Positions 20,268 to 29,000 of a stretch of DNA of 64,000 nucleotides are shown here, piece by piece (positions within the stretch are counted from its first letter, which is position 1; each line of letters starts with the position of its first letter). The notes beneath the pieces were generated by a model. That model was not told the origin of the DNA. It searched no databases and worked only from the letters and a program-made list of their open reading frames with translations. The stretch is from Scenedesmus sp. PABB004. Its lineage: Eukaryota. A program made the position numbers and the translations under genes. The stretch spans positions 62,001 through 126,000 of the forward strand of contig JABVCE010000035.1 in the NCBI GenBank assembly GCA_014905635.1, in the 5' to 3' direction.

Positions 20268-22055
20268 TCAGCGCCAGCAGTCGCCCGGCTCGCCGCGCCC
20301 GTTGTCCTTGGCCGCCACGCACGACTCGCACGCCGCCGCGCTGCCGGCGCTCATGCGGCTCGGCACCCAGCAATGAGAGCAATGAATGGCGACCGCCGCG
20401 CTCACGCGCCCCGCGCAGGCGAAGCACTTGGCCGCCGCGGCGGGGCTACCGGCGCGATAGCATTGCCAACACGCTGACGCCGCGTCGAGGCTGCGCGCCC
20501 CAGCAAGGCACTTGTAAAAGCTGGTGACCTCGGACATGGTCAAGGCTGCCGCGTCCAGGTTTGCGCAATAACTCGCGGCCGCGCCCGCCGGCGCCGCGGC
20601 CGCGCAGCCGTGGCAGGCGGCCCGCAGCGAGGCCGGCACCGCGCCGCCCGCAGCGCTGCACGCGCCGCAGGTGGCGCCCGCCTCGGACGAGCGCGCCTTG
20701 GCGATGCAGGAGAGGCACGCGGCCCGGTCGGCGCCGCGCACGTCGGCCGCGTGGCAGCCGGCGCAGCCGTCGGCGGCGGGCGCGGGGCGCGCGGAGACGC
20801 AGGCCAGGCACGCGCCGCGCTCGGCGGCGGGCACGACGAAGGTCTGGAAGCACCGCGCGCACGCGACCGCCTTGGCGCCGCCGCCGGCGCAGCCGAAGCA
20901 CTGCGCCACGGCGCGCAGGTTGGGCGCGGACGGCCTGCTTGCCGCGCGCTTGTTCAGGCAGTCCGCGTCGTCGCAGTCGACATCCAGGCAGCGCCGGCAC
21001 TCGTCGCCGCCGCGGCCCGCGGCGCACTGGACGCACGCGTCGCGCGCGGCGCCGGCGGGGAGCGAGGCGCACGTCGCGCACGTGTCGCGGCCGTCGAGGC
21101 GCTTGGCGGCCGCGATGCACGAGAGGCAGACCGCCGGCGCGGAGGTCGCGAGGCACGCGCTGCAGCTCTTGGCCGACAGGCCCGCCGGGCAGCGCGCGTC
21201 GGCGAGCTTGGGTTTGGGCACGACGCCCGACACCCAGCCGTCAGCCGCGTCTGACGGCGGGTGGGCATGCCGGGGGCGGGGGCCGGGGGCGGGGCGAGTG
21301 CGCGGGCGGCCGTGGGCGTCGCCGCCGCGAGATGGCGCGCGCGCGGCGCGCGGCGCCGCCGACTGCCCGCCCGCAGCCCCCCAGCCGCGCCGCGCACGCA
21401 CTCGTGCTCGTCACGGGCGGGTTGCGCGTGTCGCGAACGACCTTCAGCGAGCACGTGCCGAAGCGCCAGCGGTCCGGCTGGCCGCTCGCGCAGCCGCCCC
21501 AGTTGCCCCAGAAGCGGTGCGGCAGCGCGTCGCCGTAGTTGAGGGGCACCTTGAATTGCTTGCCGTACGTGCTGCAGCCGCTGCCGCAGCCCTCCTTCTT
21601 GGTGCAGACGACCCACGCGTTGCAGCCGTCGGCCTCCGCGCAGCGCTCGCAGCAGGTGGCGGGGATCGAGGGGTTGCAGCCCTGGCACGAGGTCTCACCG
21701 TAGCTGTCGGCGTCGAGCACGATAAGCTCTCCGCCCAGGTTGCGCGGCGCGGCGTTGCAGGACGCCGGCGCGCACGAGCGCCTCGTTGCGCCCCAGTAGT
21801 CGCGCAGCTCGCCGCAGGCCCAGGCTGCGGCGGCGGCGCGGGTGCGCGGGGGCGGGTGAGGGGGCGGGCGCGGGTCGCGGCGGGGGCGGCAGCAGCAGCT
21901 GGCGGCCAGCTCCCGGCCAGCTCCTGCGCGGCCGCCCAGGCTCCAGCGGGCATACCAGGGCAAAGATCCGCCATACGCGCACCTGGGGGCTCCGCGACCG
22001 CGAGCGGCGCGGCCAGGGCGAGCTGCAGCAGGGCGCAGAGAGCGAGCAGGCGCAT
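20268..22055 (-). CDS. Secreted Cys-rich protein: signal peptide, PAN/apple-like domain and CxxC repeats
   Basis: MRLLALCALLQLALAAPLAVA signal; exon 2 has CCERCAEADGCNAWVVC..CSLK; exon 3 has GWVSG followed by 16 CxxC motifs. Confidence 0.75.
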
Positions 22056-22446
22056 CCTGCTGCGCCTGGCAGCTCCGGGCGGGCGGCGAGGGGGCGAGAA
22101 GGCACTCTGACCACCACGTGAGAGCCTGAAGCGCGAGCGGCGAGCTTGAAGCGGTGGCGCAGCTGCTGCGGGCTGCCGTAGAGATGACCGCCCGCGCTGC
22201 TTGCGGTGCCCCGCGCGCTCGCGACGAAGCCGAGAGAGAGCCGTGATTAGGAAACGGACAGCACGCGACGCGCGCGCGAGCTGATCGCTCAGCTGGGCGG
22301 CGGCGGCGGCTCAGCGACGATCGGGGCCCTGGCCGCGGGTGCCGCCGCGCGCGGCCTGCGCAGCTGCCGCGCGGCTCGGCAGGTGGGTGCCTTGTCGCAT
22401 CCGGCAGAGGCTCTTGGTCACCCCCAGCATCGTCACGCCGCCATCA

Positions 22447-24002
22447 TCACGCGCCGCCGCCCAGCCCCGCCGGCGCGACGGTGATGCGGCAGCAGCCGTC
22501 GCCGCGCGCGATGCACGCGGGCAGCTCCGCGTCCACGCCCTTGTACGCGCCGAGCCAGCGCAGGTTGTGCTGGCAGCAGAAGAAGCGCTGCAGCTGCGGC
22601 GCGCCCTCCGCGGCGAGCACCTCGGCGATCATGCACGCGTCGACCGTCAGCGCCGCGCCGCCCTGCCACTCGGACGCTGTGTGGTGCTGCGCCGCCTCGC
22701 GCTCCGCCGCCGCCTCGGGGTCCTCCGCCTGCGCCACGGGCGCGGGCGCCCCCGGCGCGCCGCCGCCCCCGGCCGCGCCGCCGCCCGCGTCCGCCACGTC
22801 CGCCGCCGCCGCGGCCGCCTCGCCGTCGTCGTCGCTGTCGCCGGCGGCGCTGAGCGGCTGCACGCTGCAGTGGCACGCGCCCTCCATGTCCTGCGCGGCG
22901 TGCGGCGCACCGCGGCGGTCGGCCCCGCGCGGCGCACCGCCGGCAAGCAACCACGCCCCCGCCGCGCCCGCGCCGCGCCCGCGCCGTGCCGCGCCGCCGC
23001 GCCCGCGCCGCGCCGCGCCGCTGCGCCGCGCCGCCGCACCCGCGCGATCGTGTGCAGCGTGTCGACCGCCTGCGACACCGCGCTCTCGCGCAGCAGCAGG
23101 CGCTTGGCCCACGCGCTGAGCTTGAGGCCGCCGAGCATGAAGGACGAGTACACGCCGCCGAGGTTGAACCCAATGAACTCCTCAATCGCCGGCGCCGCGT
23201 CCTGCAAGCGGCGGCGGCGTGCGCGTGTGGTTGGCTGTTTGCTTTTTGTCGGGCACGGGCGGCGGGGCGGTGCGGGCGCGCTTGCAGCGAGGCCGCGCAA
23301 GGGGGGGGGGGAGACGCGGCGCGCGCACCGGCGCCTGTGCCGCGAGCACGCGGTGCGTCGCGACGGCAAGGCACGCCTGCTTGAGGTGGCTCCGCCCGCG
23401 GTGGCTCAGCTCCCGCCCCGCCGCCGCGCGCTGCAGCGTGGCCAGGTACTCCTCGCGCACGCGCTCCACCACGCCCGCCTGCGCGTCGTCCTGCGGCGGC
23501 GCGGCGCGGCGCGGCGTGCGGCGCGCGGGGGGCTCGCCTGGCGCTGCGCCCGCGTGCACGCCTGCTCGGCCCGCCGCCACTGCCACCGCCGCCGCCGCCG
23601 CACCTCTGTCACGGGGAACTTCTTGGTCGCCGCCCACATCTTTAGCTGCCCCGCCACGCCCTTGAGCCAGAGCTCCTCCATGTCCAGCACGCTGGTCAGG
23701 AAGGCCTTGGATACCTGCTGCGCCTGCTCGTTCGGCGTCAGCGGCCGCTGCTCGCCGCCGCTGCCAAACGCGCGCGCCGCGGCGGCGAACGCGCCGAACG
23801 CCGCGCACGCGGCGCCGGCAGCGGCAGGGCGCCGCGCGAGCGCCGCCGCGGCGGCGCGCGTGGCGGCCTGCGCGGCGGCGGCAGCGGCGGCGGTGGCGGC
23901 GGCGCGTTCGTGCGTGGGCGCCGGGGCGTGGCGCTACCGCAGGTGCGTGCGCTCCGCGCCACCGGCTGCTCCACCACCAGGGGCCCGCACCTGGAGGCTC
24001 AT
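22447..24002 (-). CDS. Organelle-targeted protein with C-terminal ATC-hydrolase/V4R-like Cys-containing domain
   Basis: Exon 1 MSLQ (24002-23991), GT-AG intron to 23868, then Ala/Arg presequence-like AATRAAAAALARRP..RAFGS; C-terminus ACMIAEVL..EGAPQLQRFFCCQHN..ACIARGDGCCRITV. Confidence 0.65.
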
Positions 24003-24009
24003 GCTGCGC

Positions 24010-24304
24010 CTACTCGGTCTCCGGCGCCGCCTGCTTCGCGGCGGGGGGCTCGGCTGCCGCTGCTGCTGCTGCCGCCGCCGGCTGCCGGCTGGGCACGCGC
24101 ACGATGGCGGGCTTGCGCTTGACGAAGCCGGCGTAGAACTTGTCCAGCACCTGCGGTAGAGCGGGAAACGAACGCGTCGGCTCGCTGCTGCTCCCGGGCA
24201 TCGAGCCTTCCCCCGGCACGAGCCGCCCGCTCCGTGCCGCTACCGCACACCTTCTGCTCTTCGGCACACCAAGACTGGAGGCCGGGCATGCAGTTGGCGC
24301 ACAT
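24010..24304 (-). CDS. Small 64-aa spliced ORF immediately upstream of the previous gene
   Basis: Exon 24304-24251 (MCANCMPGLQSWCAEEQK), GT..CAG intron 24250-24151, exon 24150-24010 (VLDKFYAGFVKRKPAIVRVP..ETE TAG); frame is preserved across the intron. Confidence 0.6.
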
Positions 24305-24805
24305 GCAAAGCGGCGGCGCGCGGCGGGCGCGGCGGCGGGCGGCGGAGGGCGCCGCTGCTGCTGCCGGCGGTCGCCGGTCGCCCTCGGTCGCGGCGGCTGG
24401 AGTTCTGCCGGGCTGGCGGTGGGAGGTGAGATGGGCGCGGCCTACACTTATTGCTGGCGGACCGCGCGCCGGGCCGGGCGGACCGCGGCGGACGTCGGAA
24501 GTCGAACCTGTCGAACCACCTCACGACCGAGCACACGGGCAGCTCTTGGCGGCGCAGGGTGGCCCGCGCGCCGCCGCCCGACGCCCCGCCCCGCCTTAGC
24601 GCGCCTCAGCGCGTGCAGCTGGGGGACCGCGGGCCCCAGGTCACGGAACGCACAGGGCGCCGCGCCGGCCGGCCAGCGGACGGCGGAGGTGCTGGGGCGG
24701 CTGCGAGCTGCCTCGAGGCGCTCACCACGAACTGCGAGCGGCGCGCCGGGTCAGAGAATGCCAGAACCACGCAAAAAGGCGTCGCAGATGTCGCTGGGCG
24801 GCTGA

Positions 24806-25178
24806 GGCGGGCGCAGCAGCAGCCTGCGCGGTGGCGGGCGCAGCAGCAGCCTGCGCGGTGGCGTGCCGTCCTGGGCAAGACGTTAAAAGGCTGCCCGTCC
24901 TGGGCAGGACATTAAAAGGCCCGCCCACGTTGAGTTGTGCACCCTGCGCCACGCACGCCTGAGTTGACACGGTGGCGGGCCACCACATGGCAGGCGCTCG
25001 CCGCCAACCGCCCAGTGGTGCCGGGTCTCCCGCGCATCACCCTGGCTCAGTGGGCTTGTCCCCTGAAGCCGTGCACTGCCCCCGCGGGAGGAGGCGGGAG
25101 GGAGGGGGAGTGCGGTTGCAGCTGCGGTCCGACCGAGGTCCGACCGAGGTCCGACCGTCTCGCTGTAACGCTCGTTAC
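24806..25178. repeat. Cluster of short direct duplications and a palindrome in a gene-free interval
   Basis: 27-nt x2 (24806-24859), ~29-nt x2 (24866-24924), GGTCCGACCGA x~3 (25126-25157) and GTAACG-ct-CGTTAC (25165-25178). Confidence 0.8.
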
Positions 25179-26076
25179 GTTCTCGCGGCGCTGCGCGCTC
25201 GACACCCAGACCGCTCGCGTGCGGGCAAAAAGCGCATTGATCAGGCGCCGTCAAATCAAACGTCAACAGCTGCTGCACGCCGGTCCGCGAGTCGCGCGCC
25301 CGCGCCGCCGCCGGCCGCGCCGCCGTCCGGGCGGCGCGCTCTTGCAGCGCGCGCGGTCCGGGCGCGGCAAGCGGGCGGCGGCGCGGGGCTGCGGTGCAAA
25401 CGGAGAAGCCACTCCTGCGTCGCCGGCAGCGCCCCCCGTGCAGGGGCAGAGTTGGTGGTGGTGCGCGCGCTGGGCCCGCGCCCGGGCGCCGCAGGAGTCA
25501 AAAGGGTCAGAGGTCAGAGAGTCAGAGAGTGAGAGAGGGCCGCGCAAGGCATGTGCATGGGCAGCACAAGGGCGCCGCCGCTCCCCGAGGCGCGCGGCCG
25601 TCCGCCACTCATCGTGCAGCGGGCGACAGGCTGCACAGGCTGCACACGTGCGTTGACCCGCGCGCGGCAGCCCAGCCCACCACAGCAGAGCACAGGCGCG
25701 CTGCCCACCGGCCGGCCCAAGAACGCCCCCGTCCCCCACCCGGCCCACCGCCCGCGCCCCCACGTCCCCAGCATCATGCGGCAGCAGGATCACGCGCAGC
25801 TGATCAACTGCCGATGCCGATGCCGACGCCGCCATCGCCGCCCAGGGCCCAGCGGGCAGCAGCCCGGCCGGCCCCGGGGCGTCACACCATCGCTGCGCAC
25901 CATGTGTGATGCGGCCGTGCACGTGGTGCGAGGCCATGCAATGCGCCGCGCGCGGGGCGCGGCCAAGCCCCCAGTTTTCGTGCGCACACATCGTGTGCGG
26001 CTGGCGCACCACCCACAGTGCGTATGTGCATAGATTACCTGCCTGTGCCACAGTGTTGGTTCGGCGCGGCGCGCGC

Positions 26077-29000
26077 TCAGCGCCGCAGCCGCCGCCCCGA
26101 GGGGCAGCCCGACACGGTCACAGGGAACGTGAGCTGCTTGGTCTCGTACGCCGGCGTGTTGGTGAGGTCGGCCGAGACGTCCGAGGAGAACGTGTAGCTC
26201 CCGCAGTCGTTGGCACCAAACGGACCAAACGTCAGGGTGAAGCTCGACGCCGCGCTGCGGCACACCGGCTCGGCCGGCAGCCCCGGCCCGACGCGCGTGG
26301 GCTGGGCCGCGGCCGGGGCGGCGGAGCCCGCCCTGGACAGCGTGCGGCTGCTGCTGAGCGCGGCGCATTCGCCCTGCACGTCGGTCGTCGCGTCCGCAAA
26401 CTTGTACACCCCGGGGTCGGTCGGCAGCAGCGTGTCACTGCCGGGATTTGCGAAGACGAGCGCCAGCACCGTGCCGTCCATGGGCGGCAGGCCGGTGATC
26501 TTGAACGGGCACAGCACCTTGGCCGGCGGCGCGGGGATGGCGATCAGGCCGTCCGCGACCGTGCCGGGCGGGCAGGCGGCGTCGACCGTCACGAGCTGCC
26601 CCGTGCGCGTCAGCGCGGCGGCCTGGACCTTGGCCACGGTCAGCGCGCTCTTGCCCTGGCCGACGAGCTGCACCGAGCCCTGCACCGTCGCCGAGCGCTG
26701 CCCGGTGAGGCGGCGGACCTTGGTGCTGACCGCGACGGCCACGGTCTTGCCGACCGGCACGGTGAGGCCCTTGGGGGACGTGACGTTGCTGGTGAGCACG
26801 GCGCGCCAGTTGTAGACGACAACGTTGGAGGTCGTGATCTTGTTGGCAATGGAGGGCACCGCGCTGGGCGTGATGTTTAGGTCGCAGCCCGTGACCTGGA
26901 CCTGGGCGATCGTGTTCGACGCAAACGGCGCCTGCACGCCGTTGAGCGGCCGCACGCGCAGCGTGTGCGCGATCTGCGCCCCGGCCGCGGCGGCGGCGGC
27001 GGCGGCGGGGGGTGAGCGCGCGCCGCGGGGCAGCGCAGCCGCAGCGCAGGCCAGCCCAGCGCAGGGCGGCGCAGGCCAGCGCAGGGCCGAGCTGCGCAGG
27101 GCGAGAGGCCGGCCACGCACCGTGTACTTGCCGCACTGATCGTTCTTGAACGGCCCGACCGGGAGCTTCAGCAGCCGGCTGCCCGGCTCGCACGCGCGCA
27201 CCGTCTCGCTCGCCGGCGCGGTCGCCGCGCCCGGCTGCAGCAGCGCGGCGCTGAGGTACAGGCCGAGGATGAGCTCCGCGCACGCGTCGTCGCCGGTGCC
27301 GCCCGCGGCCGCGGCCGGCGCGGCCGCCGGCGCGGTGGGGAAGGAGAAGCTCGCCGGCGCGGAGAGCTCAACGCGGCCGTTGCCGAGCGTGACCTCGGCG
27401 GTGAGGCTGCCGCCGCGCGCGACGCCGCGGAAGGAGGTCGAGTAGGTGCACTTCGCCGAGCCGCCGGGCGGCAGCGACGTCGTGTCGCACGCCGCGGCCG
27501 CAAACGGCACCGCGCCGAGCGCGTTGGCGCGGCGGCCGATCAGCTCCGGCTGCACCTCGACCTTGGCCAGCGTGACCGCGGCCGCCGTGGGGTTGGTCAC
27601 GGTGAGGGAGCCGCTGATCGTGCTCGTCGTGTCGGCCACCTGGCCCCAGCTCACGTTGTAGAACACCTCGCCAGGGGTGCCAAAGGTCAGCTTGGTCATG
27701 TACTGGGGCGCGACGCCGGACGCCGCCCACGAGTAGGTCGCGTTGGCGACCGCGGCCGGCGGCGCGAGCGTCACGCCGACCTCGGCCACGCTCGCCGTCG
27801 TCGCGGGGCAGCCGCCGACGACGAGCGTGAAGGTGCTCGTCGCCGACGGCGGCGCGGCCGCCTGCGCGCTGCTCTGGGGCGTCGCGGTCGCGGTCGCGGT
27901 GATCTGCGCGGGCGGAACCGGACGCGGACGCGGACGCGGCGGCGGGGCCGGCGCGCGTGAGGGCACGCGTCGCCGGCGCGGCGCGGCCTGCCCGCCGGCC
28001 GGCCGGCCCGCCCGCCGGCCGGCCCAGCGGCGGCGCGGGCGCGCGCGCGGCGGCCCGCACCGGGTAGTTGTTGCAGTCGGTGTGGCCGAACGGCCCGAAC
28101 GTGGCGGTGAAGGTGTAGGTGGTGTCGCTGCAGACGAGATTGGATGCAGTGTCGCCGCCGGCCGGCCGGTTGTCCGTGACCGCGAGCGCCGCGGCCGGCA
28201 GCCCCGTCGGCGCGGTCAGCGAGTCGCTGAGCACCGCGCACTTGCCGGCCGTGCCGTCGCCGGCCGGGGCCGCGCCAAAGGTGTAGGGGATGGACGTCGC
28301 GCTGTTGCTCGGCCCCGCCGTCGACACGGCCGAGGCGAAGACGACGCCCGCGGTCTGGGAGTCGGCCGGCACGGTGAAGCTGCACACGACGTTGCCGCCC
28401 GCCGGCAGCACGACGGGCAGGCCGCCGGGGCAGGTCGCCGCCACGGGCGCGCCCGGCGCGCTCGCGGGGAGCGCGAGCGTCGCCGTCACGGCGCTGACGC
28501 TCAGGGGCGCGTTGTTGGGGTTGGCCACGGTGACCTGGCCGCTCACGGTCGCGCGCGCGAGCGGCTCCGTGCGCGTCGCGGTGACCGTGTAGCGGACCTG
28601 CCGGCTCTGCGTGTACGGCAGCGCCAGGTCGGTGCCGTCGGCGCTGCCCACAATCGCGACCGCCCACTCGTAGTTGCCCGCCACGTTGGCCGCGACGGCC
28701 GGGTTGACCGTGACGACCGCGGGCTGGAAGCTCAGCGGCTGCAGCGGCGTCGGGCTCGGCGCGACCGGCCCCGGCGGCGGCTGGGGCCCCGGCGCGGGGC
28801 TGTTGACGGGGCAGTCGGTCACGATGACCTGCACCGTCGCGCTCGACGTCACGACCGACCCGCCCGCCACGGGCGTGGCGCGGGCGTTGTTGGTGATCTG
28901 CGTGCGGGCGCGGGCAAACGCGCGCGGCGGGGCGGGCGGGGCGGGGTGAGGGCCGCGCTCGCGCGGCGCGGCGCCGGCCGCCAGCGCCCGGCCGCTCCGC

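Follow-up and report, generated by a model that had tools for sequence, protein, structure and literature searches.

We report a compact pair of genes on the minus strand of a 64,000-nucleotide stretch of contig JABVCE010000035.1 of Scenedesmus sp. PABB004 (the window), in which a small cysteine-containing open reading frame, ORF1, lies directly upstream of ORF2, a gene of the PF14196 (ATC_hydrolase) family. The locus is very probably the Sphaeropleales copy of the Cre03.g158595/Cre03.g158600 pair of Chlamydomonas reinhardtii, carried on one mRNA, read by leaky scanning and encoding two proteins whose functions are unrelated or loosely related. The arrangement and the mechanism are already published; what is new here is the Sphaeropleales member, the intron inside ORF1 and the 7-nt spacer between the two frames, none of which was found in print among the literature matches listed. 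Full-text matches to the Chlamydomonas gene identifiers included no relevant paper among those listed, and none of the listed papers on polycistronic genes in Sphaeropleales treats this pair.

The G+C content of the window is 74-84% throughout, and its introns are short and of the GT-AG type. ORF1 consists of 24304-24251 (54 nt) and 24150-24010 (141 nt including the TAG), 64 codons in all, with a predicted intron between the two parts, and just 7 nt (24009-24003) separate its TAG (24012-24010) from the ATG of ORF2 at 24002 (Table 1). The original prediction had described precisely such a two-exon minus-strand frame ending 7 nt from the ATG, and every coordinate is confirmed. The two frames lie on the same strand, each with its own start and stop, and ORF2 is out of frame with ORF1, for which reason read-through of the TAG into ORF2 was rejected. 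The ORF2 model has five exons, of which the four after the short first one are all in phase 0, and encodes 347 amino acids; just four codons follow the ATG before a 123-nt intron (23990-23868), and if this intron stays unspliced the product from 24002 is one of 22 amino acids. A further ATG, at 24201 within the predicted ORF1 intron, is in frame with the second exon of ORF1 and has T at -3 (a weak context); if the intron were retained, or if transcription began further downstream, this ATG would yield a 63-aa variant of ORF1 that lacks the three cysteines (positions 2, 5 and 13). A search of Rfam gave no match within 21500-26500.

Table 1. Features of the ORF1/ORF2 locus (positions are those of the window)
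Feature	Position	Strand	Description
ORF1 exon 1	24251..24304	-	18 codons, beginning Met-Cys; motif CxxC-x7-C; a further AUG in frame at 24289
ORF1 intron	24151..24250	-	predicted, phase 0, GT-AG, 100 nt; all three frames non-coding
Common exon	23991..24150	-	160 nt, predicted; ORF1 codons 19-64 and TAG, spacer, ORF2 codons 1-4
ORF2 exon 2	23604..23867	-	88 codons; Ala/Arg-rich presequence, then first conserved helices
ORF2 exon 3	23329..23490	-	54 codons; equal length and boundaries in the related contig L001
ORF2 exon 4	23040..23201	-	54 codons; boundaries match L001
ORF2 exon 5	22447..22890	-	147 codons and TGA; acidic/Ala insertion, then PF14196 match

Stop codons are rare in DNA this rich in G+C, so that an open frame alone is weak evidence for a gene here, and codon usage was therefore tested. 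The codon model was trained on 921 codons, drawn from the four large exons of ORF2 and from two long neighbouring frames of the window that were taken without a homology check. Codons 1-38 of ORF1 scored +65.7 bits against off-frame reading, where the maximum for held-out non-coding DNA was 15.3 bits, and +21.8 bits against non-coding DNA; neither value was reached by any of 837 overlapping held-out non-coding windows or any of 2000 shuffles. Per codon, ORF1 scores at least as high as most leave-one-out coding controls, while its two other frames, its intron and the leader are all negative. By codon usage ORF1 is a real coding gene, with coding usage in its own frame only. Taken by itself, exon 1 gives a less clear signal against the non-coding background, where its score was reached in 16 of 1184 windows and in 32 of 2000 shuffles, and it stands out more clearly against off-frame reading (0 of 1184 windows, 3 of 2000 shuffles). 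Splicing at 24250-24151 is predicted from a donor that fits the pattern of the four donors of ORF2 and an acceptor with a pyrimidine-rich tract (0.75), a value equally high at 15 of the 861 YGCAG sites of the window.

The ORF1 peptide comprises about 38 ordinary residues followed by a low-complexity tail; this boundary was set by eye after the published lengths of 32 and 38 codons (see below) were known and is not independent support for them. Searches with single short exons, which are insensitive, gave no candidate homologue for the exon-1 frame and, for exon 2, weak unrelated matches only in the ESM Atlas and no confirmed match among 600 stretches of viral contigs; a degenerate ORF1 pattern had nine viral matches, with no relative among them. 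The spliced peptide found no ORF1-like sequence when compared with 172 retrieved proteins, and an off-frame trace of ORF1, sought in over-long gene calls, was absent.

The last exon of ORF2 matches PF14196 with 30.4 bits (E 7.8e-7), above the gathering cut-off of 28.1, though the match spans only profile positions 71-143 of 145; close homologues score 29.8-40.3. The closest relatives are Sphaeropleales green algae, and the model agrees at 63-66% with full-length proteins of Tetradesmus, Scenedesmus and Enallax, its exon ends mapping to contiguous positions in the homologues. Records of such relatives include A0A383W1Q0 (Tetradesmus) and KAF6252298 (Scenedesmus), and the transcripts GHUV01003919 and GHRR01005909 come from Enallax and Flechtneria. 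Three intron positions are held in common with the related genomic contig L001, where the counterpart of the second ORF2 intron (L001:159-309) starts with GC, not GT. Four full-length homologues have a Met start at a position like 24002, and the start of ORF2 is fixed there by two observations: one homologue (P0015) agrees at 6 of the first 7 residues, and for another, P0014, comparison with the genomic fragments P0008 and P0021 implies an intron following codon 4. Of the first 40 residues four are Arg and none is Asp or Glu, as in mitochondrial presequences, which suggests a transit-peptide-like N-terminus. The earlier description of the downstream gene as organelle-targeted and ATC-hydrolase/V4R-like is upheld by the PF14196 score and by this N-terminus. 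An acidic, Ala/Gly- or Gln-rich insertion (22860-22690, minus strand) splits the PF14196 domain in ORF2 and its closest relatives and is missing from the Chromochloris, Chlamydomonadales and outgroup members. Searches for the genomic context of ORF2 relatives confirmed a single stretch out of 98 from metagenomes, on a contig of 1041 nt that carries nothing upstream, and none of 51 and none of 104 stretches of viral contigs; among prokaryote genomes 1 of 23 was confirmed, a 30-residue match in a Clostridia MAG.

Five residues of ORF2 (Cys286, Glu295, Cys305, Cys306 and Cys334) are invariant in all 25 aligned relatives. A search by sequence for a solved structure of ORF2 returned none. A first structure model, from 6 sequences, had a pLDDT of 53 and its own fold search was uninformative; a model of the homologue P0014 had a pLDDT of 81. 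The top Foldseek rows for the latter were MopR, DmpR, PoxR, Bet3 and H-NOX, none of them below E 0.001 and the best, MopR at E = 0.093, not significant, and a wide fold search was without a clear match (PoxR at rank 41, Z 5.8, rmsd 5.3, 147 aligned). PF14196 has been grouped with the V4R and H-NOX domains, the Cys cluster being common to them, in the part of PMC5847659 available, and DmpR is described as binding Zn via three Cys and one Glu (PMC7264223, in part). Since the top fold rows are V4R-like, and given this grouping and the DmpR ligands, a Zn-type site in ORF2 would be likelier than an Fe-S centre. Most likely, ORF2 is a Cys-ligated, probably Zn-binding protein that binds or hydrolyses a small molecule and belongs to the PF14196/V4R/H-NOX fold group. 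It has a conserved Cys cluster in common with PF14196 and the V4R/H-NOX fold group (the MopR, DmpR and PoxR sensor domains) and differs from them in its added N-terminal helices and presequence; the order and spacing of its Cys and Glu residues are also unlike those of DmpR (Cys151, Glu172, Cys177, Cys185).

To place ORF2 among its relatives we used a midpoint-rooted tree with 32 rows, one of them shortened to 250 residues; species names are attached to 14 of the 31 rows besides the window. The members from Trebouxiophyceae/Ulvophyceae (Micractinium, Botryococcus, Apatococcus and Bryopsis) are set apart from the Chlorophyceae (100/100), among which Volvox, Gonium, Haematococcus and Dunaliella form one Chlamydomonadales clade (100/100). 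Chromochloris, Flechtneria, Enallax, Tetradesmus and Scenedesmus group together with the window, with weak support (87/66), and this group holds all named Sphaeropleales; no named species occurs in two clades, 14 of the 31 rows being named. The orders of six species were looked up, and the others are given their usual placement. The tree fits one gene per genome and vertical inheritance. A profile-profile comparison of the Sphaeropleales and Chlamydomonadales groups matched at E 8e-28 with 26% identity, and tree and profile match alike fit orthology of ORF2, on the Sphaeropleales side, with the proteins of Volvox, Gonium, Haematococcus and Dunaliella.

Cre03.g158595/Cre03.g158600 is among the 87 fully polycistronic loci of C. 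reinhardtii in the work of Gallaher (2021, PMC7896298), the available parts of which give Cre03.g158595 as a gene of 219 nt and 72 aa added in v5.7, a spacer of 81 nt, and Cre03.g158600 as a gene of 1116 nt with PF14196, marked '1 of 1' in Phytozome (the only PF14196 gene) and predicted to be mitochondrial. The same source lists colinear, EST-supported matches in Volvox (scaffold_14:173089-173184; 96 nt, 32 codons) and Dunaliella (scaffold4:1237267-1237380; 114 nt, 38 codons), the latter beginning 26 nt inside the 5' end of the annotated gene, and reports facultative co-transcription of the Chlamydomonas PF14196 gene with the next gene across 416 nt. In the available parts of Duenas (2025, PMC11892635) the pair is kept in the high-confidence set with Ribo-seq reads of 122 and 61, the products are predicted in cytoplasm/nucleus and in mitochondria, respectively, and the start context of Cre03.g158595 is Met-Cys-(Asn/Lys).

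In each of the two loci a small ORF1 without a domain, starting Met-Cys and out of frame, immediately precedes a PF14196 gene whose product has a predicted mitochondrial presequence, the products are 72 and 371 aa in Chlamydomonas against 64 and 347 aa here, and two AUGs precede the ORF2 start. They differ in the spacer (81 nt against 7 nt), in the third residue of ORF1 (Asn/Lys against Ala) and in the acidic insertion, which Chlamydomonadales ORF2 proteins lack; an internal AUG is missing from the Chlamydomonas ORF1, which, as judged from its span across mixed annotation versions, appears intronless, whereas the Scenedesmus ORF1 has both an intron and an internal Met. Only two of the 87 C. 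reinhardtii loci in the lists available from PMC7896298 have a distance from first to second gene of 7 nt or less (0 and -103), which places the present spacer at the short end. Position, size, a match of two codons and architecture suggest that ORF1 is orthologous to Cre03.g158595, and the pair is probably already known under those names. ORF1 had been put forward as an unrecognised microprotein, a claim that is not supported in view of the published pair of like architecture in C. reinhardtii, Volvox and Dunaliella.

The Chromochloris column is blank for this pair in the tables available from PMC7896298, and Cz04g36050 is not in the polycistronic lists available from that paper. The intron, which splits the ORF1 core into 18 and 20 residues, could explain the blank column. 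The annotated protein (P0023, Cz04g36050) has 436 aa, including an N-terminal low-complexity region of great length; a misplaced start is possible and could hide an upstream ORF.

The stop of ORF1 and the start of ORF2 both lie inside one predicted exon of 160 nt, and a separate ORF2 mRNA would therefore need a transcription start inside the coding sequence of ORF1. The sequence TGTAA is the usual chlorophyte poly(A) signal. It follows neither ORF1 nor ORF2 and occurs only seven times in the 64-kb window (five plus, two minus); a different or less strict signal may operate in this alga. At -3, the base is T at the ORF1 AUG (24304), T at the second AUG (24289) and A at the ORF2 AUG (24002), context strength being judged by the -3 rule alone, without a species-specific matrix. 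Over the spliced 390 nt from 24480 to the ORF2 start there are only two AUGs, both in the frame of ORF1; with about 5 AUGs per kb in the window, this count is too small to speak of depletion. These features sustain the original prediction of one mRNA with two separate ORFs and leaky scanning, through the common exon and the T, T and A contexts, and we infer that ORF1 and ORF2 are read in this way from a single message. Given 64 codons and a 7-nt gap, reinitiation after ORF1 is on general grounds less likely than leaky scanning. A weak ORF1 context, a stronger ORF2 context and few upstream AUGs form the pattern of algal leaky-scanning bicistrons as described in the available parts of Duenas (2025, PMC11892635). 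The exclusively bicistronic green-algal loci TOM22-like/SDHAF3 and REX1-S/REX1-B likewise have a short ORF1, a weak ORF1 and stronger ORF2 context and an organelle-targeted product; in these loci upstream AUGs are few.

In the mechanism that we propose, one promoter upstream of 24304 would give one pre-mRNA with five introns. Part of the scanning ribosomes would start at the weak AUG 24304 (or at 24289) and make the 64-aa protein, with its presumed Cys-containing core of about 38 aa and low-complexity tail; the remainder would pass the two weak AUGs, meet no further AUG and start at the stronger 24002, producing the 347-aa mitochondrial precursor. The leaky-scanning step is proposed from the sequence and from the mechanism demonstrated in other algae. 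Joint action of the two products is improbable.

Several other readings have to be weighed, and our estimates for these and for the preferred explanation overlap and do not sum to one. ORF1 might be a class II conserved-peptide uORF (CPuORF), whose cysteines sense metal or thiol during translation; a ribosome stalled there would keep others from scanning on to ORF2, and the released peptide would have no further role. Such a reading is compatible with a single mRNA and differs only in the role of ORF1; it draws on the lack of a domain or of a homologue outside the locus, on the Cys-rich nature of ORF2 itself, on the existence of N-terminally conserved class II CPuORFs, some of them in green algae (PMC9305500, in part), and on the view of ORF1s as a continuum with uORFs in the available text of Duenas (2025, PMC11892635). 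The plant examples also resemble ORF1 in being short, N-terminally conserved (as is probable here) and placed before the main ORF (PMC9305500, in part). Proteomics, by the same account of Duenas, detects most algal ORF1s as proteins, and we consider a purely regulatory ORF1 unlikely. A related and rather bolder idea, that ORF1 is a Chlorophyceae-wide Cys sensor peptide, kept linked to ORF2 since the Chlamydomonadales/Sphaeropleales split because it couples metal or thiol status to synthesis of ORF2 (or works in the same pathway), is speculative and appears to us distinctly unlikely; if true, it would assign roles to both of these uncharacterised proteins and provide a case of an algal bicistron under conditional regulation. 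It is improbable, too, that ORF1 is a small gene or uORF specific to this lineage and unrelated to the Chlamydomonas ORF1, the likeness of the two pairs reflecting coincidence or an ORF2 paralogue. No sequence homologue of ORF1 came from the searches with exon 1 and against the 172 proteins, the lists of polycistronic loci lack the Chromochloris relative, and the identity between the ORF2 groups is low; against these points, the position, the Met-Cys start and the partner family are equal and the size is similar, the Chlamydomonas PF14196 gene is '1 of 1', and the tree fits one gene per species.

The original prediction further saw in the two products a possible metal- or Fe-S-related pair, acting jointly in the organelle. 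The three Cys of ORF1 and the four Cys invariant in 25 of 25 ORF2 relatives speak for this, and Mia40-type import of small, presequence-free Cys proteins is known. The suggestion is nevertheless unsupported, and we hold it to be very unlikely: the Chlamydomonas partners are predicted in different compartments and most algal bicistrons join unrelated proteins (available parts of PMC11892635), no Fe-S protein is among the fold matches listed, and the closest folds are those of Zn-binding V4R sensors, at non-significant E. Least credible, and hardly to be expected, is a product in which ORF1 and ORF2 are partly or mainly one protein, through an alternative acceptor in the ORF2 frame or an upstream non-AUG start. 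Use of an acceptor at 24069, 24066, 24063, 24060, 24054 or 23868 would place exon 1 in frame with ORF2, and the ORF2 frame is open through the spliced leader to 24441, without an ATG; yet over ORF1 that frame scores -53.5 bits (non-coding) against +76.6 in the ORF1 frame, the four full-length homologues start with Met near the equivalent of 24002, none of the 172 retrieved proteins contains an ORF1-like sequence, and an N-terminal addition would bury the presequence of ORF2.

If the preferred reading of a leaky-scanning bicistron is true, the pair extends to a second green-algal order, one in which the published tables have no match (the Chromochloris column being blank), and the gene model supplied here is one that annotation is likely to miss. 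The long-kept linkage of ORF1 and ORF2 suggests function, and the 7-nt spacer and intron-containing ORF1 make the locus a usable test case for leaky scanning.

The neighbourhood of the pair offers some further observations. The next gene on the same strand starts at ATG 22055, 391 nt (22446-22056) past the ORF2 stop with no TGTAA between, and has a signal-peptide-like start and Cys-rich exons without a Pfam match. A single-exon frame of 308 codons with repeated CxxC motifs (20268-21194, minus strand), likewise without a Pfam match, is probably the end of this secreted gene. On the other side, a Thr/Val/Ser-rich gene (26077-28200, minus strand), with a weak Fn3-like match below the cut-off (E 0.005), has its stop 1772 nt before ORF1. 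Short direct repeats, seen by eye as two pairs, of about 25-30 nt, together with a unit of 10 nt present about three times, lie upstream of ORF1 at 24915-24805 and 25157-25125 (minus strand) and are possibly promoter-region repeats.
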